Source: Alphaproteobacteria bacterium (lineage in GTDB: Bacteria > Pseudomonadota > Alphaproteobacteria > MPNO01 > UBA830). Taken from it: DNA of 64,000 nucleotides. The notes below the pieces were generated by a model. That model did not search any database. It saw only the letters and a list, made by a program, of their open reading frames with translations, and was not told the DNA's origin. Below, one piece after another: positions 1 to 49,369 of this stretch; within the stretch, counting starts at the first letter, position 1; each line of letters starts with the position of its first letter. The translations under genes were made by a program, and so were the position numbers. The DNA is taken from assembly GCA_964291215.2 (NCBI GenBank), contig OZ219790.1, positions 1,888,001 through 1,952,000 on the forward strand, given 5' to 3'.

Positions 1-2482
1 CCCGTGGTGGGATCGGGCGGCCTCTCCCGCGGCCAGATCTCCTTATTCCGCGCATAGGCCATCGTAAAGACCGTCGCCTGCTCGTCGATCCCGATCGCGG
101 CCGGCGGATCGCCCGGCCCGCACAGCAGGTCTCCGCGCCGATACACATACTCGCCCTGCTCGATGCCCCGCCGCACGCCGCGCACGAAGATGTCGTCGCC
201 CGCCAGGATCGGCAGGGCCGGGTCGCGGCGGAACTCGTCGCGCAACGACCGCGTCGACATCTGCCCCTTCCCGAGCGGCGTCCGGTCGCGCACATAGGCC
301 GGCGAATCCGGCTCGTCCTCGGGCAGGCGCAGCTTGTTCAGATCACGCAGCGCCCGCACGACCTGCTGCTGCCCCGCGCCCGGCCGATCCGAGGCCGAGT
401 GCATGTCGATCGCCGTATGCGCCAGATCGATGTCGCCCCCGCCGACACGGTGGCGCGAGGGGTAGAACACATGCCGGTAGCATTGCTGCACGGCAAGCGC
501 CAGGTCATGCTCCGAACGCGCCTCCATCTCACGCAGCTGGGCCTGCTGGTGCTCCGCCAGATCGACCAGACGTTCCGGCTTCTTCATGTCCCGCAGCGCC
601 AGCCGGCGGCGGGTCCGGCGGCGCATGTCCTCCCCGCGCTCCCCGTCGGCGGCCACGAAGACCAGATTGTTGCGGAGCAAGCGCAGGGCGGCACCTTCCG
701 ATCCCTTCCGCTCAAAGATGCGCCCGATCAACGCCGGCACAGCCTCGACCGAGGCGCCGACGGTCACGGCATCATAGCCGAGAACCACCAGTTTCGGGCG
801 GCCGTCCCCAACCTCGTCGGCCACGTCGAACGGGCCGCCCGGAAACGGTACCGCCTCCAGCGTCCCGCCGCGGAAAATCGTGCCGATCCGGTCGTTCAGC
901 TCCGCCCGCACGTCCCCGGCGTCGATATGGTCTTCCGTGCGCCGGATCATCTGGTTCAGATTGGCCTCCGCCAGAAAGCGCATCGGCGCGCCGGGGCGGT
1001 CGTCGAGGTAGGCGGACTCGGCAATGAACCTTTTGCGCGCCTCCTCGACGAAGCCGATGTCCATCGACGCGCCCAGCACCGAATAGCGCAGCCGCTCCGG
1101 CGATACCCCCTTCAGCGGGTCGTTGAACGCCAGCGTGTGCATGAAGATGGCGCGGGCGACACAGGAGGCGTAGGGCGGCAGTCCCCCGTGATGCGCGGCG
1201 TCTATCTCCTCGGACAGCGCCGCCTTGCCGCCCCCGGACACGTCGTTGGAAATGGCCGGCGCAAACGCCGACTGCCCGAGACGGGTCACGATCTCCTGCC
1301 GGACGGGTCCGTGGCCCGGGTCGATATGGTGCAGGTGGATGGCCGTCGCGTGGGCCGGCCGCTCCGCCCACAGATGGGCCACCGTGCGCGCCAGCAGCCG
1401 CAACATGCCCCGCACACGCTGGAAATTGCCGAGCGTCGCCGTCTTCGCCGTCAACGTGTCCAGAACCTCCGGGTGAAGAGGATAGCTCGAAAGGAACGCC
1501 GCGGCCGCTTCCGGGCGGTTGGCAGCCTCCGGCAAAGCGTCCGCGTGGGCGCTCCACTGCGCCCGGTAGGCGTCCGCGGCAGCAGCGGCCGCCGTCTCGT
1601 CTATCGACTCGAACAGGCGGCGGCGGAGCACCCAAGCCGTCTCGTCCTCTTCGGTGGGGTTGAGCAGTGTAGCCTTGCGCGCCGACACGCTCTCCGCCTC
1701 CGCCATGCCGTCGGCGATGAACCGGTTCTCGTCGCGGTAAGCGTCGGTCGCCCGTCCGTCCTTGCCGATCGCCAGCGTATGGACGAGGGCGGCGTTCGGC
1801 GCGCCTTCCACGGCCTTGAACAGCGAGGTCAGGAACGCTGTCAACTGGTCGCGGGCGTGGCCGAGAGCCGCTGCCTTGCGCAGATAGACCGACAGCTCGT
1901 CGAGCAGGATCAGCGCCGGTTCGCCGCCGAACAGCTCACGCAGCGTTTCGGCCCCGGGCGCGATCCGGCGCTCGTGCGCACCCGCTCATATCCGTCCCGG
2001 CCCGCCAAGGCCGTGGCGATCTCGCCCCACGGCGTAAAGGCGAGATGCCCGCCTTCCATCCGGCGCCCGTTGGCCGGATCCGCGTTTTCCCCGTCAAAGG
2101 CGGCAATGCGCACACGGCCCCGCGGCAGAAGCGCGGGATCGACGAACTCGGAAATCCCCGGCAAATCGACGCCGCCGCCCGCAGCGTGGCACAGCGCGAT
2201 CAGGCCGTGCGACTTGCCCCCGCCATAGGAGGTGTCAAGACGGAAGATCGACGCCGCTTCGCCGCCCGCGCCGCTCAGCCGGGCGCAGACATTGGCCAGA
2301 AGGCTCTTCAAACCTCTCGTCGGGTAGGTATTGGCGAAGAACCGGGCCGGATCGACATAGTCGGCCGCGCCCTCGCCAACCACCACCTGAGACAGGTCCG
2401 CCGCGAAATCGGCCTCCGTCACGGCGCCCGCCAGGACATCAGCGCGCGGGCGGCAGGACTCGAAAATCGTCGGTATCGTCAT
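1..2482 (-). pseudogene. DUF499-family AAA+ ATPase (component of restriction-like/Gao_RL-type defence loci); frameshifted near 1975 and running off the left edge of the window
   Basis: ORF 1910-2482 begins TIFESCRPRADVL..EADFAADL..FFANTYPT..LDTSYGGGKSH (Walker A). A second frame continues from 1973 as ERRIAPGAETLRELFGGEPALILLDELSVYLRK (Walker B)..NPTEEDETAWVLRRRLF and stays in register to position ~3. Confidence 0.85.
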
Positions 2483-2921
2483 CGCGCGCCCTCGGCCCTC
2501 CTGCTTCTGTCAACCGGGCCCGCTGCGCCGATCCCGGATCTCCGGAACCGCCGGCCCAGCATGTCTCCATCGGCGACAGGCCGCGGCTTCGCGCCGTCAC
2601 GACACAGACGGCAGCCATCGTCGCTCCCGCCTCGTATCCGCCAGTCAACGCTTGCGCGAAACATACGCCAACACGGGCAAGGCTGTCCAATCGCCGGCGG
2701 GCCTTCACCTCATCATCGCGACTGCTCACCGGCCAGCAAAGAAACCGTCCCGGCAGACCAAGAGACCAAGGCCGCTGCCCCCCCGGAAGCACAAGCCTGA
2801 ACGCCAGCACGAAGGCACCCAACTCCCGCAAGCTGTCGCGCCATTGCCGCTGCTCTTCCTCCGTCAGCACACTCAAGCTCCATGCCGAACGTCATTTGGC
2901 CCGTGCCATAGCGGTACCGCT

Positions 2922-3115
2922 CAGGACTTTCCCATGCTGTGGTTGATGTTCTGAATGACCGCTGAACGGAGCACAAATTTCCGCATTCTTGCCAGGATTT
3001 CCGGCTGCGACGACCCGTGAACGGCTCCGCGGCCAGAAAACCCGGCAAAGTTGGGCCTGTGCAACCTCCTTCCATCAGCAGTCGGCAAGATCGAATGCAA
3101 CGCGGGAAAGTCCTG
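2922..3115. mobile_element. MITE family A, copy 1 (~194 bp)
   Basis: Ends CAGGACTTTCCC...GGGAAAGTCCTG with an imperfect TIR extending to ~40 bp; a diverged second copy lies at 11935-12113. Confidence 0.8.
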
Positions 3116-3206
3116 GAGCTGCACCACCATCTGGTTCCCGATGGCACGATCCGGTATAACGATGGCCGGGCTGCAGCGACCCAAGCTAGCGCACGGTGCC
3201 ATCGCC

Positions 3207-6552: not shown

Positions 6553-6574
6553 GGAGGATCGAGCCAGCCGGGGC

Positions 6575-6767
6575 CACGACGATCCCATGCTAATTTGAAG
6601 ACGCGAAATCCGAATGCGTTGGGGTTCGGCTCATCACAGATCGCCTCCTTGATCGCAATTTTCGTGTCAAGAAGGCCCCATTGAGCCTTGGCGGCACGAT
6701 TGCAGCGCGACGCAAACTGAGAAAATCTCGCCAGTCGTCGCCGGATTAGCAGCGTGGAATCACCGTG
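6575..6767. mobile_element. MITE family B, copy 1 (193 bp) with a 10-bp target-site duplication
   Basis: TIR CACGACGATCCCATGCT / GCGTGGAATCACCGTG; flanking direct repeat CAGCCGGGGC at 6565-6574 and 6768-6777; homologues at 12124 and 26299. Confidence 0.88.
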
Positions 6768-7124
6768 CAGCCGGGGCGGTCAGGGGACGGTCGGGCTGCC
6801 CGGCTGGAAACAGGCTGCCAGATGCCGCGCGGAACGAAGCAACACGCTACTCAATCGCGACGAAGGAGGCGCTCCCGATCCCTTGGCCTGTCCCGTCCAC
6901 AATGGACGGAACCCGAACAATGGCAGGGAGGATTGGTGAAAGAGCCAAGCCTGCTGTTTGGCAGAATAGCTTCCCTGGATCGACTGCGGGGCTGATCTGC
7001 CGCTGCGAAATGCCGAGGGACATACACCAGCCAGCAATGGAAATTCGATATTCCAAGGTAACTGCTCACCCCCTGGTTCCGGCTTGATGTCGGGGTAGAG
7101 CAACGAACGGGTTTTCGTGGAGAT

Positions 7125-7153
7125 TTGACACTGCAGGCCGATTCGTTTAGTGG
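7125..7153 (+). promoter_or_regulatory. Sigma70-like promoter inside the IS66 left end (same sequence at 8692-8720)
   Basis: TTGACA-17 bp-TAGTGG, followed by a GGGGA RBS-like motif and GTG at 7182. Confidence 0.45.
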
Positions 7154-7181
7154 TGGTAATCGAGAACGACGGGGACCGCCA

Positions 7182-7310
7182 GTGGGCTACTTTGGATCGA
7201 AGGCGACGAGCGGGCTGTGCCAGCTGCTTCCGGGGCTCCAGCCCCCGCATGATCTGTATGTGAAAACGCATCTCGGAAGCGGCGCGCTGATGAAGCGCAA
7301 GGCCGGGTGA
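7182..7310 (+). CDS. 42-aa leader ORF resembling the N-terminus of a D12-class DNA adenine methylase (in IS copy 1)
   Basis: GYFGSKATSGLCQ..QPPHDLYVKTHLGSGALMKRK; its stop overlaps the transposase start (TGATG). Confidence 0.55.
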   Translation: MGYFGSKATSGLCQLLPGLQPPHDLYVKTHLGSGALMKRKAG

Positions 7311-8624
7311 TGGCGACGGTCAACGCGGCGCGCGAGGAGTTCGAAGCGGCCAGGACCGCGGCGCTGCCGGCAAGGTGGCGGAAGAGGCCGTCATCCGCGT
7401 CTTCGTCATCCTGCTCGACATCCTCATCGTCGTCCTTCTGGAGAAGACTACGCACGAGCCGGAACTCTGGTCTGCCGCCGTCACAGACGGACAAGAGCGT
7501 GCCGGAAGCAACGGCAAGGGCCCGAAGCCGAACCGGCAGATGGGCGACAACCTGCGCAAGACCATCGTCGAGGAAACGGTCGCGGCCTGCGACGCCTGCG
7601 GCGCCGACATCGACGGCCCCGTCGATCGGGAGCGCCGCGTCCTCTATGACATCGTGTTCGAGGTCGTCGAGCGCCGCGCCGAGATCAAGGAATGTCCGAA
7701 GTGCAAGGCCCGGGGCCGGTTCCCCGACAACATCCCGTGCAGTACGGCATCCAAGCCCTCGTCATCAACCTGCTGGTCGCCCAGATGCTGTCCCTGCGCC
7801 GTGCTGTCGCGCTCGTGCAGGCGATCTCCGGCATCAAGCTCTCCGAGGCCTCGGCTATGCTTTCACGATGCGTCATGGGAGGAGACCGCCGTGGCGCACC
7901 TCCTGCAACGCCCGATGTCGACGATTTCGGATCAACAGTAAGTGGCTCCATGTCGTGGGACCCTGACGTGCAAGTTCCCGCACCGCAAGCGCGGGCAAGA
8001 GATCGGCATCATCCCGTGCTACAAGGGCGTCCTGGGCCTCGTACATGGCAGTGTAGCCACCAGTTGTGCGGCAGCCACCTGCTGCGCGAACTGACCTTTG
8101 TCGTCGAGGCTACCGCTGGGCGCGACTGATGAAGAGCCTGCTCCGCGAGGTCTGCCACAAGGTCAACAAGAGCGCATCCAAAACCCTGAACGACGCCGGG
8201 CGCAAGCGCTACCGCACCATCAGGGCGCCAGGGAACTGCCCGACATCCGCCGCCGCCGAAAGGAAAACGTGGACGCAAGTCCGACGCGCACAACCTGCAC
8301 GAACGTCTCGTGAAACACGAAAACCTGCACTTCACAGACGACCCCAACGTCAGCTTCACCAACAATGCCGGAGAACAGAAGATCAGGATGGCAAAGCTCA
8401 AGGTGTCCGGATGCTTCCGCTCCACGCAAAAGCATGGTGCCGGGGCTCAAGCTACCTCACCTCCATGGCCGCACTCGGCTACAACCCACTCGTCGCCACC
8501 CAGATCGCCCTCGACGGAAAAGCCGCAGACATCATCAACGAGCACTACGACCAATCAGAACCCAACTAGGGGTGAGTAGATACTATTCCAAGTTTTTTCT
8601 CTGGTTGCCTATGCTTTGAAAATA

Positions 8625-10167
8625 GTAACTGCTCACCCCCTGGTTCCGGCTTGATGTCGGGGTAGAGCAACGAACGGGTTTTCGTGGAGATTTGACACTG
8701 CAGGCCGATTCGTTTAGTGGTGGTAATCGAGAACGACGGGGACCGCCAGTGGGCTACTTTGGATCGAAGGCGACGAGCGGGCTGTGCCAGCTGCTTCCGG
8801 GGCTCCAGCCCCCGCATGATCTGTATGTGGAAACGCATCTCGGAGGCGGCGCGCTGATGAAGCGCAAGGCCGGGTGATGGCGACGGGCGGCGCGCGAGGA
8901 GTTCGAAGCGGCCAAGACCGCGGCGCTGCCGGCAAGGTGGCGGAAGAGGCCGTGATCCGCGTCTTCGTCATCCTGTTCGACATCCTCATCGTCGTCCTTC
9001 TGGAGAAGACCACGCAAGAGCCGGAACTCCGGTCTGCCGCCGTCACAGACGGACAAGAGCGTGCCGGGAGCAACGGCCCGAAGCCGAACCGGCAGATGGG
9101 CGACAACCTGCGCAAGACCATCGTCGAGGAAACGGTCGCGGCCTGCGACGCCTGCGGCGCTGACATCGACGGCCCCGTCGATCGGGAGCGCCGCACGACA
9201 TCGTGTTCGAGGTCGTCGAGCGCCGCGCCGAGATCAAGGAATGCCCGAAGTGCAAGGCCCGGACCAAGGGCCGGTTCCCCGACAACATCCCGTGCAGTAC
9301 GGCATTCAGGCCCTCGTCATCAACCTGCTGGTCGCCCAGATGCTGTCCCTGCGCCGTGCCGTCGCGTTCGTGCAGGCGATCTCCGGCATCAAGCTCTCCG
9401 AGGCAACCTGCCTCGGCTATGCTTTCACGATGCGCTCGTGTCATGGGAGGAGGCCGCCGTGGCGCACCTCCTGCAACGCCCGATGTCGACGAGACCGGAT
9501 TTCGGATCAACAGTAAGTGGCTCCATGTCGTGGGACCCTGACGTGTAAGTTCCCGCACCGCAAGCGCGGGCAAGAGATCGGCCCGTGCTACAAGGGCGTC
9601 CTGGGCCTCGTACATGGGCCAGTGTAGCCACCAGCTGTGCGGCAGCCACCTGCTGCGCGAACTGACCTTTGTCGTCGAGGCTACCGCTGGGCGCGACTGA
9701 TGAAGAGCCTGCTCCCTGCCACAAGGTCAACAAGAGCGCATCCAAAACCCTGAACGAGGCTGACCGCCGGGCCGTGCGCAAGCGCTACCGCACCATCAGG
9801 GTGCCAGAGAACTGCCCGACATCCCGCCGCCGACGAAAGGAAAACGTGGACGCAAGTCCGACGCGCACAACCTGCACGAACGTCTCGTGAAACACGAAAA
9901 GTCAGTCCTGCGCTTCACAGACGACCCCAACGTCAGCTTCACCAACAATGCCGGAGAACAGAAGATCAGGATGGCAAAGGTCAAGGTGTCCGGATGCTTC
10001 CGCTCCACGCAAAAGCATGGTGCCGGGGCTCAAGCTACCTCACCTCCATGGCCGCACTCGGCTACAACCCACTCGTCGCCACCCAGATCGCCCTCGACGG
10101 AAAAGCTCGCAGACATCATCAACGAGCACTATGGCCAATCAGAACCCAACTAGGGGTGAGTAGATAC
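8625..10167 (+). mobile_element. Decayed IS66-family element, copy 2
   Basis: Same termini as copy 1; its own 8-bp TSD TGAAAATA at 8617-8624 and 10168-10175. Confidence 0.92.
8749..8877 (+). CDS. 42-aa DNA adenine methylase-like leader ORF (in IS copy 2)
   Basis: GYFGSK..PPHDLYVETHLGGGALMKRK, resembling motif X and motif I. Confidence 0.55.
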   Translation: MGYFGSKATSGLCQLLPGLQPPHDLYVETHLGGGALMKRKAG

Positions 10168-10214
10168 TGAAAATATCCGAATTTGATGTTTAGAGGCATC
10201 AAAGAACACCAAGA

Positions 10215-11069
10215 TTGAAGCCCTTTCTGGACCGAGGCCTACCCGGTTTCCTCGTCGATGCAGCATGGCTGAAGCGCTTCGGGATCGACCCCAAATCTAT
10301 CCACAATTACGCCGAGCGGGGCTGGCTGGAGCGGGTGGTGCGCGGAGTCTACCGCCGCCCGTTGCCCCATACCGATCAGGCGGGGCACCCGATTATCCGA
10401 CTGGAGACCGACTGGCAGTTCCTGCTGCTGTCGATCCAATGGATCATGGAACATGATGCCCATCTGGGTGGTTTGAGCGTGCTCGGCTTCCATGGGCTCG
10501 CCCACTATCGGCCGCTTGGTGGCGGGAAGCGTGTCTGTCTCTATGGCGAAGCCCCCTCCCGGCTGGCGCGCCTTCCAGGCAAGACACAGTTTGTCGTCCG
10601 CTCGCGCGCCCTGTTCGGCAATGGCCTCACCGATGTCGAGAATACCGAGCACCAGCTTGAGAGCGCGCCCGGGGCGAGGACAGGGCACGGCCCGACGGTG
10701 AGCCCCTGGCGCTGGCCGCTCAAGGTTTCGTCTCCCGAACGTGCCATCCTCGAAGCGCTCGGCGAACTGCCGGCCCACGCGACCTTCGACGATCTGGACA
10801 TGATCTTTCAGGGGTTGGCGAACCTGCGCCCCGAGCGCCTGATGACCCTGCTGCGCGCTTGTAGAAGCATCAAGGTCAAGCGCCTGTTTTTCGTGTTCGC
10901 CGACCGGCATGAGCATGTCTGGTTGAAGCATCTGGACAAGAGCGCCATCGATTTCGGTTCCGGTCCGCACGCGCTGATGAAGGGTGGAAAACTGCACCCG
11001 GTCTACCGGATCTATGTGCCCGAGGCGCTTCTGCCTGTCGATCTCGACGACGACGCGAGCCATGCATGA
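10215..11069 (+). CDS. abiEi: Type IV toxin-antitoxin antitoxin, AbiEi family
   Basis: GFLVDAAWL..Y..RGWLERVVRGVYRRP, SSPERAILE, LLRACRSIKVKRLFFVFA; overlaps the downstream toxin start; 5' end uncertain. Confidence 0.88.
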   Translation: MKPFLDRGLPGFLVDAAWLKRFGIDPKSIHNYAERGWLERVVRGVYRRPLPHTDQAGHPIIRLETDWQFLLLSIQWIMEHDAHLGGLSVLGFHGLAHYRPLGGGKRVCLYGEAPSRLARLPGKTQFVVRSRALFGNGLTDVENTEHQLESAPGARTGHGPTVSPWRWPLKVSSPERAILEALGELPAHATFDDLDMIFQGLANLRPERLMTLLRACRSIKVKRLFFVFADRHEHVWLKHLDKSAIDFGSGPHALMKGGKLHPVYRIYVPEALLPVDLDDDASHA

Positions 11070-11934
11070 ACGCTGTGTCGAGCAGGTCCGTTTGCTGATG
11101 CGCCTTCTGCCGGCCATTGCGGCGGCGGAGGTCTTTGCGCTCAAAGGCGGTTCAGCCATCAATCCCTTCTACCGGGATATGCCGCGTCTGTCGGTCGACA
11201 TCGATCTGACCCATGTGCCGATCGAGAATCGTGCCTCCTCTCTTCACCATATCAATGCCACGCTCGACCGGATTATGGCCTCGTTCGGCCGCAGCAACGG
11301 GGATGGGCGGTTCCAGCGCATCGCCGGCGGTGGGAACCTGGAAACCCGCAAAATGGCCTCGCGCGGTACGGCGAGGGTGAAGATCGAGACCTCGCCTGTC
11401 ATGCGCGGGACGGTGCTGTCGCCGGTGCCGATGAGGGTTTCGGGCGCGGTAAAGGAGGCCTTCGGCTTTGCAGAGATGCCGGTGGTCGCCATTGAGGATC
11501 TCTTTGCCGGCAAGCTGCATGCCGCCCTCGACCGCCAGCATCCGCGCGGTCTCCATGATGTCCACCTGCTCTACGAGAATGAGGGGCTGACGGACGATTT
11601 ATGCCGGGCCTTTCTGGTCTATGTCCGTGCATCCGGTCGTCCGCCGCACGAACTGCTGGCGCCGCCGGCTATCCCGACAGAAGAACGGTACACGGAGGAA
11701 TTCGTTGAGATGACGCGAGAGGAGATTGCGCTGTCCAATCTCGAAGCTGTCCGATCTCGAAACAGCGCGGACGCGTCTGATCGCGGATATCCAAAGCCGC
11801 TCGACTGGCAAGTCCGCAACATTCCTGCTGTCGCTTCACGACGCCCAACCGGATTTCGCTCTCATCAACCTGCCTCAGGCCGAACGGCTTCCCGCCGTCC
11901 AATGGAGGCTTGTCAAGCTGCGCAGGCTCAAGGC
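11062..11934 (+). pseudogene. abiEii: AbiEii/AbiGii nucleotidyltransferase toxin; frameshifted and truncated at the 3' end
   Basis: FALKGGSAIN..PRLSVDIDL and GKLHAALDRQHPR. A 16-bp tandem duplication (11730-11761) shifts the frame, the C-terminus (LPAVQWRLVKL) lies in another frame, and MITE A follows. Confidence 0.85.
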
Positions 11935-12113
11935 CAGGACTTTCCCGCCTGTTGTTGATGTCTTGAATGACCGCTGAACGGGGCACAAATTTCTGCATTC
12001 TTGCCAGGTTTTCCGGCTGCGGCGACCCGGCCCCGCGGCCAGAAAACCCGGCAGGCTGTGCCCCCCCCTCCATCGGCAGTCGGCAAGATCGAATGCAGCG
12101 TGGGAAAGTCCCG
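11935..12113. mobile_element. MITE family A, copy 2
   Basis: CAGGACTTTCCC...GGGAAAGTCCCG; colinear with 2922-3115. Confidence 0.8.
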
Positions 12114-12123
12114 GGGGATCAAA

Positions 12124-12315
12124 CACGATGATCCCATGCTGTTTCGGAGACGCGAAATCCGAGTGCGTTGGAGCTCGCGTCATCACAGATCGCCCCTTGA
12201 TCGCAATTTTTCGCGCCGAGAAGGTCTCATTGAGCCTTGGCGGCACGATTGCAGCGCGACGCAGACCGAAAAATCTCGCCGGTCGCCGCTGGATTAGCAG
12301 CATGGGATCGTCGCG
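12124..12315. mobile_element. MITE family B, copy 2
   Basis: CACGATGATCCCATGCTG...CAGCATGGGATCGTCGCG; degenerate TSD GGGATCAAA / AGGATCGAA. Confidence 0.85.
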
Positions 12316-12510
12316 AGGATCGAAGGGCGCGCGTTGACATCAGCGCTCACCCGTGCGACGCTCATTTCGAGTGACCCGGCCGCCCCGCTACCCACGCCGG
12401 ACTTGGCGGATCGCCCTTTTCGGGCATGTCCGATTGCATTTCGTCACGTCAACAGCAACCGGCCTGCAGTCTTGGACCCAGGTGCGGCAACCCAACCGGA
12501 AGAGGCCGAC

Positions 12511-26245: not shown

Positions 26246-26298
26246 GAGCCGGATTTTCGCGATCCCGGAACAACGCGCAACCGTGCCCCTTCGCGGCC

Positions 26299-26405
26299 CA
26301 CGGTGATCCGGCGCTGCCAATCCAGCGACGACTGGCGAGATTTCTCAGTCTGCCTCGCGCAGCAATCGTGCAGCCAAGGCTCGATGGTGCCTTTCCCGGA
26401 CGCAG
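26299..26405. mobile_element. MITE family B, partial copy in reverse orientation
   Basis: CACGGTGATCCGGCGCTGCCAATCCAGCGACGACTGGCGAGATTTCTCAGTCTG...GCAATCGTGCAGCCAAGGCTC matches the reverse complement of the right half of copies 1 and 2. Confidence 0.7.
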
Positions 26406-26457: not shown

Positions 26458-27047
26458 ATGGAAGCCGACGAAATCATCGCCCGATACGGGCTTGTGCCCC
26501 ATCCGGAAGGCGGCCACTACCGGGAGACATTTCGTGCGGTCGCGGAGGATGGCAGCCGCGGCGCCGCCACCGCAATCTACTATCTGCCGAAGGCTGGCGG
26601 GACCTCGCCTGGCACCCAGGGTCTTCTTTTGTCCGGTTCCGTCCGACGAGGGGGCGTTGTAGGCAGATCTGGAGGTCCATTCGGGGGCGGATTTCGTTGT
26701 CGATATGCCGGTTCCGACTTTGAGACGGTGCCACCAACTTCAAGAACGGTCACTCTGACACGGTTGTCCGCCGCCGATCGCGACAACAGAATAGTCTTGG
26801 CCTGGCACCGCATCGATGCCACGGAGATCTGGCATTATTGCGCAGGCGCTCCGATTCACTTGACGCTGTCACCTGACGGCCGCACGACCACGAAATCGCG
26901 TCTGTCGACGGATATTGGCGCGGTACCGCATATCGTGGTTCCCGCCGGCACTTGGCAATGCGCCCGGTCCGATGGCGCCTGGCCGGTTGCACGGTGGCCC
27001 CTGCATTCGGGTTCTCCGGTTTCGAGCTCGCGCCGCCCGGATGGTAA
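26458..27047 (+). pseudogene. Cupin_5 (DUF985) protein interrupted by a MITE and a later frameshift
   Basis: PHPEGGHYRET..TAIYY / WHRIDATEIWH..GAP / VVPAGTWQ; the terminal GCTVAPAFGFSGFELAPPGW* is in another frame. Confidence 0.85.
26617..26799. mobile_element. MITE family C (183 bp) with a 10-bp TSD
   Basis: Imperfect TIR CAGGGTCTTCTTTTGTC / GACAACAGAATAGTCTTG; direct repeat GCCTGGCACC at 26607-26616 and 26800-26809. Confidence 0.82.
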
Positions 27048-45654: not shown

Positions 45655-45848
45655 ATCCGCTCCGCCATGAATTCCACCACCCGTCCGCCAAGCGCTAGAC
45701 GCCCGTGTGGCATAATGCTGCACCAATATGGCAAGAATAGGGCCGCCGTCCGAGTCTTATCAGTCTAACGCACTTAACCCAAGTTGGCATTTTTTGCGTC
45801 AGTTGAAGGGGAAATTTATGCGGCAGCCTCACTCGATATACTATATGT

Positions 45849-46369
45849 CCCCACTTCCAGTCTGAAGTGCAACACCCGGCCCTCATCGCAGTGAGGGCGT
45901 AGCCCGAACGGAGATGAGGGCCGGGTGTTGCACAAGTTTTCCTCCTCTGCCCCTCTCGATTCCGCCTGGAAACAGCTTCAGTTCCTTCAACATCGAGCTT
46001 ATGCAACGCCTTTGTCGGCTTCAAGCCACTATCTAAGGCGTCAACCGCCAGGAAACAGACGAGGCTGCCCTGCGTTTCTGCCATCCTTTGCGCCTGCTTG
46101 TGACGGTAACCCCGTCCCCCGGTGTTGCGCTTGATCTCCCGGTAAATTGTTGATCGGCCCAGCTGCCGAGCAATCGCACCTTGTGAAAGACCGCTTTTCT
46201 GCCTCAATCTGGCATCGCTCTTCGTAGGTGACGGTAGCCTTTGGACATGAACAAGCTCCCTCCATCTTGTACAGGAACTTTCGCCGCTGCTGGACAGCTC
46301 CGCAACATCATGCGTCTAAAAACACATGGTCACAGCCCATCATGTGTTGCACTTCACTATGGAACGGGG
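45849..46369 (-). mobile_element. Internally deleted IS30-family element
   Basis: TIRs CCCCACTTCCAGTCTGAAGTGCAACAC / GTGTTGCACTTCACTATGGAACGGGG; fragmented HTH N-terminus TYEERCQIE..SQGAIARQLGRSTIYREIKRN. Confidence 0.82.
45867..45933. repeat. Perfect 21-bp inverted repeat (hairpin) overlapping the IS30 end
   Basis: GTGCAACACCCGGCCCTCATC, a 25-nt loop, then GATGAGGGCCGGGTGTTGCAC. Confidence 0.9.
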
Positions 46370-46411
46370 GTACCCACCAAAAACCATCAATACAATGTAG
46401 TAGGACTGCTA

Positions 46412-47656: not shown

Positions 47657-48250
47657 ATGAGCGACGAAGAGCCAGTAAACAGAACGATTATTGACCGGGC
47701 AAATTTGCCGCAGATGTTTCCTACGCATCGGCATGAACCCGAATTTTGGGAACACCTTGGGCGGACAATCGCATCGTTCGGATTCCTAGAGGAAGTTCTA
47801 GGGAAAGCGATCTTCGCGTTCACCGCTACCCGGCGCTACAGCGAAGACGAGATTGACAAAGCGTACCAGGCTTGGCTTCCAAAACTTGAACGGGCTTTGA
47901 CCGACCAGCTTGTTAATCTTGCAGAGGCGTACGGCAAGGCGACCCGGGACAATCCCGACACGACAACCGAAAATGTCTCTGATCTTGTCAAGGATATCAA
48001 GTGTGCTGCGGCTATCCGCAATGTGCTTTGCCACGGAAGCTGGCGCGCGCCCGACGCCAACGGCGCGTCTATTCCATTGTTCGTGAATCGACAGAAAGAG
48101 ATATTTGAGACGCCAATCGACGTGTCTTTTCTGCGAAAAGTCCAAGCTCACGTAGCCGACCTATCGTGCAGCGTCATGGACACGGTTACGCACATGAGAT
48201 GGCAATTCCCTAGCCCGAAGTTCCAGCACCGATCAGACGTATCATTATGA
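47657..48250 (+). CDS. Hypothetical helical protein with a HEPN-like RxxxxH motif; 3' end replaced by an IS
   Basis: LGR.IA.FGFLE..L and IRNVLCHGSW; lower GC; IS1634 end begins at 48214. Confidence 0.6.
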   Translation: MSDEEPVNRTIIDRANLPQMFPTHRHEPEFWEHLGRTIASFGFLEEVLGKAIFAFTATRRYSEDEIDKAYQAWLPKLERALTDQLVNLAEAYGKATRDNPDTTTENVSDLVKDIKCAAAIRNVLCHGSWRAPDANGASIPLFVNRQKEIFETPIDVSFLRKVQAHVADLSCSVMDTVTHMRWQFPSPKFQHRSDVSL

Positions 48251-49170
48251 ATGTATTGACGTTTGAAAAAATCGGGTGTGTCGCTACTGGGAACGCTACA
48301 AGCGTACGCCGAGGTAGTCCAGGGCCTTTTTCTGGAGCGGCGTGGGCCGCGTGGTGACCTGGAAGGGTTGGGGCGCCCGCAAGGCGGGGCGCCACGGTGT
48401 TGCGGGTGGCGAGATCGTCGATGAGGGTGGAGAAGCTGTGCCACCCCCGGGTGTCCTCTTAGTTGCCGCCTTGGCCCGGGCGCTCGCCGAGACCTCTGCC
48501 GGCGCCACGACGGAAGACCGCCTTCGGCATCCTCGTCGTCGAACAGCATGGGCTTCAGTTTCTGGCGCATGTGCCATTCAACGTAATAGGCGAGCATGCA
48601 CAGGAAGACGTGGGTCCGGGGCGGTGGTAGACGGGACGGACCTTCAGATCCACGGTCTTGAGGCTGCGGAAGGCCCGTTCCACCGAACTCAACCGCTTGT
48701 AGGCGCGCACCGTGCCGTCGAGCTCGCTCTGCGGCAGGCGGATCACGTAGAGGAGCCTGGCCTCGGCGGCAGCCTCATCGCGCCCATAGGTGAAGACACC
48801 GTCGTCGTCGATGGACCACGTGAAGTGCTTCGCCATCTTGTACTTGCCGATGACCTTGCCGACCCTCTCCCCGATCTTCCCGGCGCTTGTCGCGCCGTGT
48901 CGCTGCTGCGATCGGTTCAGGCAGGACCTCGGTGGCCTCGAGCAGTTCCTGGCGCTTGCGGGCCCGGTCCAGCAGGGGGTTGCGGCAGAGGCGTTCGCCG
49001 GGATACGCATCGCTGGTGATCTCCACCAGGTCCCTCTCGTCGAAGAGCGACATCTCGATGTCGCCGGCCTCCACAAGGGCGCGGATGCCCCTCAAGGCGC
49101 TGATCCAGTCCAGGCCTGCGGGCTTCACCTCCTCGCGTATCCGCGCCTCGGACAGACCCTTCCGGAGCTG
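48214..49170 (-). mobile_element. IS1634-family transposase remnant with many frameshifts
   Basis: LDWISALR, LFDERDL.EI, KYKMAKHF, YKRLSSVERAFRSLKTVDLKVRPVYH, MLAYYVEWHMR; terminus CCCGAAGTTCC. Confidence 0.85.
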
Positions 49171-49369
49171 CGACGTGTATCGGACAGGACGCAATGTGTT
49201 TGTGAACTGACATCCCCGCACCATGACAACTTCAGTACAGGAAAGCCAGCGAAAACTGCAAAAAAATCTCTCGCACCAACCCGCGCCCCCCGCAAAGCCC
49301 AGGTACTGCCTTGAAAAATCAAACAGAATTTAGCGTAGGATCACCCTGCCACCCTCCTGTCGCGGGCGG

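Follow-up and report, generated by a model that had tools for sequence, protein, structure and literature searches.

A stretch of 64,000 nucleotides (nt) of the genome G000 (contig C1:1888001-1952000; hereafter the window) carries two neighbouring, eroded insertion sequence (IS) copies of the IS66 family, which bear a genuine, lineage-restricted signature of deletions of 5-7 base pairs (bp) that runs through the repeats of this genome. Most of the load in the IS copies is made up of the same alleles common to many copies, not of fresh events, and the reading that we prefer, with a probability of about 0.55, is that deletions are rarely seeded anywhere in the genome and are then copied one-way, in short patches, between repeats by the removal of loops. 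The genome measures 6.15 Mb in two contigs (C1 and C2), at 64% guanine plus cytosine and 99% completeness; repeats make up about one third of the window, and 12% of it lies under at least 50 self-matches. The genomes compared with it carry labels of the same kind (G001, G002 and so on).

Copy 1 of the IS66-family element (7058-8583, forward strand) is non-autonomous and lacks 31 pieces relative to the union of all family copies, 25 of them of 5-7 bp, and copy 2 (8625-10167, forward strand) lacks 29, 22 of them of 5-7 bp, with 20 in common with copy 1. Each copy has its own target duplication on the forward strand, read from the sequence (9 bp at 7049-7057 and 8584-8592 for copy 1, 8 bp at 8617-8624 and 10168-10175 for copy 2), so that they represent two separate insertions, 41 bp apart. 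The copies are 93.3% identical to each other, and their global alignment contains 26 substitutions and 15 gaps. Three of the gaps are short (one of 2 bp and two of 1 bp), whereas the other 12 measure 5-7 bp and are located between 7320 and 8329 (forward strand, copy 1 coordinates). Five of these pieces are present in copy 1 and absent from copy 2 (7320, 7513, 7639, 8007 and 8145, the first sitting in an ambiguous alignment stretch next to an 80-bp deletion), and seven are absent from copy 1 (7713, 7848, 7872, 7923, 8194, 8200 and 8324). A preliminary description of this DNA had reported about 12 such gaps, roughly two dozen substitutions and a few 1-2-bp indels, all of which we recover, and the gap letters that it listed match the alignment up to their placement within microhomology. 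Its claim that the gaps are copy-specific, on the other hand, does not hold: of the 20 deletion calls on which the two copies disagree, 19 are found in 13-103 of the 114 family copies, and 20 further deletions, called against the family union, are common to both.

The family encompasses 115 short copies (1435-1656 bp) among 159 end pairs, 106 of which have 8-bp duplications; one of the 115 proved to belong to another family and was removed, leaving 114, and the captured-DNA insertions that had appeared in the alignment were an artefact of this single mis-included copy. As the union of the copies restores an open frame of 483 codons, the gaps are losses and not insertions. Each copy lacks 12-34 pieces of 5-7 bp, a number roughly equal to its own substitution count. 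IS66 elements have terminal inverted repeats beginning with GTA and an 8-bp target duplication, and the family has both, copy 1 with its 9-bp duplication aside; fragments of family members, one of them in window copy 2 (C1:1897617-1898018), match DDE_Tnp_IS66 (PF03050). The first 240 bp and the last 140 bp of the element (window 7058-7307 and 8400-8583) hold far fewer deletions than the transposase gene, and these deletion-poor ends are longer than terminal repeats alone would require. A young, intact IS66 family, at C1:922417-923232 and about 11 other places, has no gaps and less than one substitution per copy, and has only the first seven bases of its left end in common with the dead family.

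Genome-wide, we aligned 70 repeat families, with 1010 copies on an 86-kb union reference (some families overlap), and observe a sharp peak at 5-7 bp rather than a spectrum dominated by 1-bp gaps. Independent deletions of 1 to 12 bp number 189, 48, 73, 48, 258, 526, 276, 87, 55, 17, 40 and 60, respectively, which corresponds to 1060 deletions of 5-7 bp (958 once duplicates are removed) versus 169 of 2-4 bp. Longer deletions are mostly serial events, since in the first eight families 80 deletions measure 10-21 bp and 59 of them contain one of 5-7 bp, where 25 are expected. Deletions in bacterial pseudogenes are described as following a power law of sizes with an excess at multiples of three (PMC6054270). 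Such ordinary bias, with 1 bp dominant and at most an excess at multiples of three, is not observed in G000, and it is insufficient as an explanation because it cannot put 5 and 7 bp far above 3 and 9 bp; dominance of 1 bp does appear in the repeat gaps of control genomes. The data support the earlier idea that so narrow a size class points to a specific mechanism, in the form of a process that is locked to this size and whose burden is heaviest in repeated mobile DNA.

It is exceedingly improbable that the gaps are an artefact of assembly or polishing in repeats. The contigs of three out of three short-read runs (X1, X2 and X3) show the gaps at 7320, 7801, 8115 and 8145, although a single study supplied all three runs, X1 is possibly the source sample itself, and the phasing of alleles within copies is beyond the reach of contigs. 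Over 20 kb of single-copy DNA, X1 does not differ from the assembly, X2 differs at 4 sites and by one 7-bp indel, and X3 has 144 site differences and three indels, of 6, 1 and 7 bp, which makes three of the four strain indels 6-7 bp long. In addition, a second genome (G002) has a size mode and a motif of its own, four other complete or near-complete IS-rich assemblies have 12 gaps of 5-7 bp out of 225, and one young family is gap-free in 11 copies. At L074:14860-14876 (C1:1089860-1089876), two strains each have a 7-bp loss within a short imperfect tandem repeat; the calls lie ten bases from each other and may represent one event, differently placed.

The load scales with copy number. The median number of deletions per substitution is 0.08 in the 46 families with fewer than 12 copies and 0.44-0.62 in the 24 larger ones (rho 0.55), while substitutions per kb show no rise with copy number. 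High frequency among copies is reached by deletions of 5-8 bp only, with means of 0.37, 0.40, 0.47 and 0.32 for 5, 6, 7 and 8 bp as opposed to 0.07-0.16 for 1-4 bp and 0.11 and 0.03 for 9 and 10 bp, and a frequency above 50% is found in 171 of the 514 size-class deletions versus 8 of the 119 of 1-4 bp. The same deletion is present in several paralogues in a pattern that fits no tree, and all four gametes are found, at distances of 1-4 bp, in 45% of 51 deletion-SNP (single-nucleotide polymorphism) pairs (r2 0.30) versus 5% of 102 SNP-SNP pairs (r2 0.64); the copies are mosaics for SNPs as well. Fixed hot spots were considered and rejected, as the clustering of positions is gone after alleles one substitution apart are merged. 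Fresh recurrence at exact sites would need far more sequence specificity than is observed and should strike two-copy DNA too, which makes templated transfer the simpler reading.

The transfer could work as follows. Rare new deletions of 5-7 bp would arise anywhere in the genome; during ectopic recombination, an intact and a deleted copy would then pair, as we infer, with the intact strand looping out 5-7 bases, and an enzyme, presumably a single one, would nick the intact strand on both sides of the loop and reseal it. Loops starting with a purine followed by T would be preferred (AT in G002, AT or GT in G000), and the deletion would move between copies with neighbouring point differences mostly staying put. 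Loops of at most 4 bases would go to MutS, which binds loops of up to four nucleotides (PMC8235422), and loops of more than 8 would not fit. The direction of transfer is deduced from allele frequencies, the strain data being unphased contigs, and any benefit to the host is likewise presumed.

This pattern could also have arisen passively, if master copies had long ago suffered a burst of 5-7-bp deletions and, once dead, had been amplified by transposition in trans, and if exchange were unbiased, with loops longer than 4 bases escaping MutS and SNPs being corrected back. Dead copies were indeed mobilised with fresh target duplications (106/159), singleton deletions amount to only about 0.05 per substitution with far more deletions among the common alleles, the size limit of MutS coincides with the lower edge of the size class, and SNP mosaics are found among the copies. 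Taken together, however, the two parts of this account are distinctly unlikely, as they explain neither why high allele frequencies stop at 8 bp nor why the edge motif grows with sharing, and as the same pattern is seen in nearly all large families of differing age, is absent from other IS-rich genomes and is accompanied by strains that still vary by 6-7-bp indels.

The edges of the deletions carry a motif. Microhomology in G000 is enriched, with log-odds that reach about 1.8, but not required, 125 of the 385 events in the first eight families being free of it. Beyond microhomology, the edge motif contributes some 0.2 nats per event on held-out families; it reads approximately C-N-S up to the cut and purine-T-C from there onwards, and a weaker pair of preferences flanks the far edge of the same strand, with A ahead of it and a purine behind it. 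In G002, the motif is sharp and one-ended, with an AT start in 75 of 126 microhomology-free deletions (7.5 expected) and a held-out gain of 1.27 nats, and G002 events are rated well above random sites by the G000 motif model. The motif score is correlated with deletion frequency (rho 0.17, n=376), and the AT/GT start reaches z values of 3.4-6.9 in multi-copy classes and 1.7 in 2-3-copy DNA; being strong in the former, weak in the latter and absent in single-copy DNA, the motif is tied mainly to the spreading step. Three further associations were discarded: a link to codon phase, hinted at by a first motif fit (phases are as expected), a transcription-strand bias (0.50 vs 0.51 expected, 693 events) and a gyrase-like 4-bp dyad, which is absent from the fitted weights.

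Identical alleles on differing SNP backgrounds, as well as the motif, could alternatively result from untemplated recurrent cutting, where a factor that targets DNA because it is multi-copy or mobile (e.g., RNA- or transposase-guided) removes the same 5-7 bases at fixed sites, independently in each copy. The overlap of different deletions in places, as with a pair of 6-bp alleles that are offset by two bases and occur in 54 and 59 of 115 copies, is in line with it. This explanation deserves attention but is unlikely: the sites are not clustered beyond chance and the motif in G000 is weak, so that it could hardly choose about 60 exact sites per element anew in each copy, two-copy duplications are scarcely affected, there is neither a coding-strand nor a codon-phase bias, and we found no Piwi in G000 and no TnpB above cut-off in G000 or G002.

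Outside the multi-copy families, the signature is much thinner but present. In 377 kb of single-copy DNA, where G000 and the sister genome G001 differ by 24,417 substitutions, G000 lacks 83 pieces of 5-7 bp and G001 lacks 10, whereas 1-4-bp gaps are balanced (140 vs 122); in the first 220 kb, 39 of the 43 lost pieces are not tandem duplications in G001. The single-copy losses lie mostly in coding DNA under selection. In 25 two-copy duplications, we count 17 gaps of 5-7 bp among 45 gaps, per 1538 substitutions. The earlier proposal of a process that mutates repeated or mobile DNA is thus supported in that such DNA is hit hardest, but too narrow in that single-copy DNA is affected too.

Among the other genomes, for which the counts come from stretches of each genome (with little sequence for G003 and G004), the signature recurs in G002, a distant congener (71-75% identical) in which 452 of 636 repeat gaps are of 5-7 bp and the mode has moved to 5-6 bp. 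We therefore observe two variants of size and motif, 5-7 bp at purine-T and 5-6 bp at AT. In the much closer G001 (92% identical), IS homologues stay long relative to those of G000, and gaps of 5-7 bp number 0 of 2 in G003 and 10 of 58 in G004, and, outside the genus, 0 of 17 in G031, 1 of 8 in G033, 3 of 47 in G034, 8 of 153 in G035 and 3 of 14 in G030. No comparable peak is thus found in three congeners and five other IS-bearing genomes, and the combination of a close negative and a distant positive genome suggests a gained or switchable factor.

As to the machinery, the preliminary description had favoured staggered double-strand cuts with 5-7-nt overhangs that are trimmed and end-joined, every gap being fresh. 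Microhomology that is enriched though dispensable would agree with this, as would a symmetric end motif, whose fit to G000 is almost as good, and Ku-independent joining could still supply the seeding step. We nevertheless regard end-joining as highly unlikely to account for the signature, because the motif of G002 is one-ended, because fresh events cannot yield the sharing (the load consists mostly of common alleles) and the dependence on copy number, and because Ku (searched in G000), NucS (in G000) and the ATP-dependent ligase PF01068 and primase-polymerase PF01896 (0 of 5 genomes) were not found. Nor did the other enzymes suggested earlier, Argonaute and TnpB, turn up: Piwi was not found in G000, and TnpB, searched in five genomes, is represented by one sub-threshold fragment in G000 and was not found in G002. 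Type IB topoisomerase (PF01028) occurs in 2 of 31 genomes, neither of them G000 or G002. Loss of MutS is rejected as a cause, since MutS is present in five of five congeners.

Two loci were considered further, with gene content compared over about 0.7 Mb of G002 and about 0.6 Mb of G001. The first is a cassette at C2:2549819-2558498 (L094:1819-10498) that encodes an HKD+Snf2 helicase, a Type IIG methyltransferase, an inverted spare specificity domain and a shufflon-type tyrosine recombinase of 325 amino acids (C2:2557521-2558498), with intact catalytic residues and close orthologues only in G000 and G002 among 31 relatives. The helicase is the neighbour of the recombinase in about 30 of 79 loci, from many different phyla, which makes the recombinase the likely invertase of a phase-variable Type IIG locus; as a sufficient cause, the cassette is rejected, since its carriers G031, G033, G034 and G035 are the negative genomes listed above. 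The second is an sspABCD operon (C1:876313-882858; L330:10313-16858), which is intact, with sspA divergent, and is found as the same subtype in G002, with a split sspC; no SspE or SspFGH match lies in the 20 kb scanned around the G000 genes. Other phosphorothioation genes occur in G001 (a different SspABCD-FGH) and G004 (DndACD), and in G269, whose SspB is 80% identical, 48 of 71 IS66 matches are full and constant in length while scores drop from 143 to 85 bits, as judged by match coordinates and lengths, not alignments (G046, G191 and G115 gave no IS matches). The presence of these genes does not track the signature, and Ssp phosphorothioation is rejected as a sufficient cause. The published Ssp motif is CCA (PMC8092258, PMC12914056), versus AT(C) at the deletion edges, but it may not be that of the G000 subtype. 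The cassette and the operon may each still contribute. About half of the 48 full-length IS66 matches on C1 of G269 carry one in-frame TAG stop at constant length, i.e., decay by substitution only. Altogether, G000 has 61 tyrosine-recombinase matches, and near-identical copies of a three-recombinase element, presumably RIT-like, are found at C1:452443-456096 and C2:1174852-1178505.

Several observations weigh against templated copying by loop removal. No transfer event is directly observed in the data compared, and no responsible enzyme could be pinned down among the candidates searched. The deletion-SNP pairs are non-independent and some repeat families overlap. The substitutions were polarised by majority, so that a strict comparison between the derived spectrum of SNPs and that of deletions is not warranted. 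In the strictest but small test, deletions flanked on both sides by SNPs in perfect linkage show four gametes in 4 of 16 cases versus 10 of 121 for SNPs (p 0.06), or in 3 of 16 versus 1 of 121 (p 0.005) when two or more of each are demanded. Same-size shifted alleles, as expected from imprecise clipping, are modestly in excess (70 vs 42 expected at offset 1, and 27 at offsets 2-4 vs 12 alleles of other size), and the one-strand motif model in G000 is barely above the symmetric one (0.397/0.443 vs 0.391/0.422 nats). Deletions in single-copy DNA are without the motif (AT/GT start in 21 of 82, 29.1 expected), and 25 of these 82 have a junction repeat of at least 4 bp, from which seeding is possibly a different or a selection-filtered process. 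Finally, G004 has a small bump at 6-9 bp (4, 5, 2, 4) over 2-5 bp (1, 1, 4, 1; loci L049-L052), which makes its negative status soft and possibly that of a weak variant of longer size.

Other lesions in the window fit the same picture to varying degrees. A frameshift in the DUF499 gene had been attributed to a 5-7-bp loss, and indeed 7 bp, one unit of a 7-bp tandem repeat, are absent at about 1969 (1960-1985, reverse strand) relative to the paralogue; the region (window 1-2703) is a two-copy duplication whose second copy (C1:1405894-1409582) is 96.7% identical, with gaps of 6, 6, 6 and 7 bp, and a short-read contig record carries the longer form of the site. The same was claimed for the single-copy cupin (DUF985) gene, where 7 bp are absent at about 26979 (26970-26990, forward strand) relative to G001. 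Both losses have junction repeats of 4-7 bp, so that slippage can explain them. The fragmented remnant at 48.2-49.2 kb, previously assigned to IS1634 and here without a Pfam match (48194-49360, reverse strand; about 28 copies), has many 6-7-bp losses, seven to nine such pieces being absent relative to each of the 4 copies listed of 27, and a piece of a high-copy IS family bearing the signature, with an HTH_38 match, is internally shortened (45773-46398, reverse strand). The core genes, described as intact, are so in their reading frames, although 6-bp losses that preserve the frame do occur in core DNA.

Immediately to the right of the IS66 tandem lies an AbiEi/AbiEii type IV toxin-antitoxin pair (10215-11958). 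Short multicopy elements of 100-400 bp, with 17 to more than 100 copies, are found at 2763-3127, 6563-6782, 11919-12329, 26287-26400 and 26603-26816; within 11919-12329 (no strand assigned), the unit at 11935-12114 lacks one 6-bp and one 7-bp piece relative to four of the four copies listed. In contrast to the IS genes, the element of the 6575 type varies mainly by 1-2-bp gaps.

A deletion process of this kind, locked in size, led by a motif and growing with copy number, would amount to a new mutational signature, and it would explain the ending of IS blooms in host-associated bacteria; the one-way copying of deletions would be an undescribed brake on mobile DNA. In the open-access literature, subscription papers lying outside our search, we found neither a size-locked 5-7-bp deletion signature reported in bacteria nor a sequence-independent, copy-number-sensing brake on insertion sequences. 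The signature points to a putative loop-removing nuclease-ligase activity, whose gene should be findable by comparative genomics thanks to close negatives, distant positives and two size/motif variants. More tentatively, and with somewhat less than even odds, a horizontally moving or repeatedly activated enzyme may constitute a homology-dependent deletion drive that clips purine-T loops of 5-7 bases from paired repeats and reseals the strand. If so, each frameshift arising in one transposon copy would sweep the whole family, and the system would be the bacterial equivalent of repeat silencing in fungi, based on a new chemistry, and a natural short-deletion editor.

Repeat-induced point mutation in fungi involves C-to-T changes, a methyltransferase-like (RID-like) enzyme and the sexual cycle, and needs no mutant donor. 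As in that system, damage in G000 grows with repetition and transposon copies are ruined, but the excess lies in deletions, which appear to need a donor allele. Templated spreading would work like the deletion-biased nonallelic gene conversion of eukaryotes, where a deletion in one paralogue is passed on more often than undone, leading to cooperative shrinkage (PMC3280953). Deletions pass between paralogues there with a bias of about 3.5-fold and over a range of lengths, but the passages available mention neither a size lock nor an edge motif, while the process described here is bacterial, limited to 5-8 bp, led by a motif and found in only some congeners. The deletional bias of bacterial pseudogenes (PMC6054270) resembles our data in that deletions outnumber insertions, microhomology is found at some junctions and Ku is absent; it differs in its power law, where 3, 6, 9 and 12 bp are raised, as compared with 258 and 276 deletions of 5 and 7 bp versus 73 and 55 of 3 and 9 bp in G000, and in that deletion alleles are here common to many copies. 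The geometry that we propose, with two one-strand cuts, the loss of a short oligonucleotide and religation, and with a narrow size class with an edge motif, is that of sequential cleavage by TOP1 (ID4/ID-TOP1), although the deletions described for it (PMC8866115) are eukaryotic, transcription-linked and of 2-5 bp at TNT-type repeats, while G000 and G002 have no type IB topoisomerase, there is no coding-strand bias and 125 of 385 events are free of microhomology. Lastly, the UvrC-dependent microimports of Helicobacter pylori show that bacterial recombination can proceed in very short patches, with a mean of 28 bp (PMC9426483); these stem from transformation between cells and carry SNPs, and the abstract mentions neither a deletion bias nor a size lock. 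Both uvrB and uvrC are intact core genes in G000.

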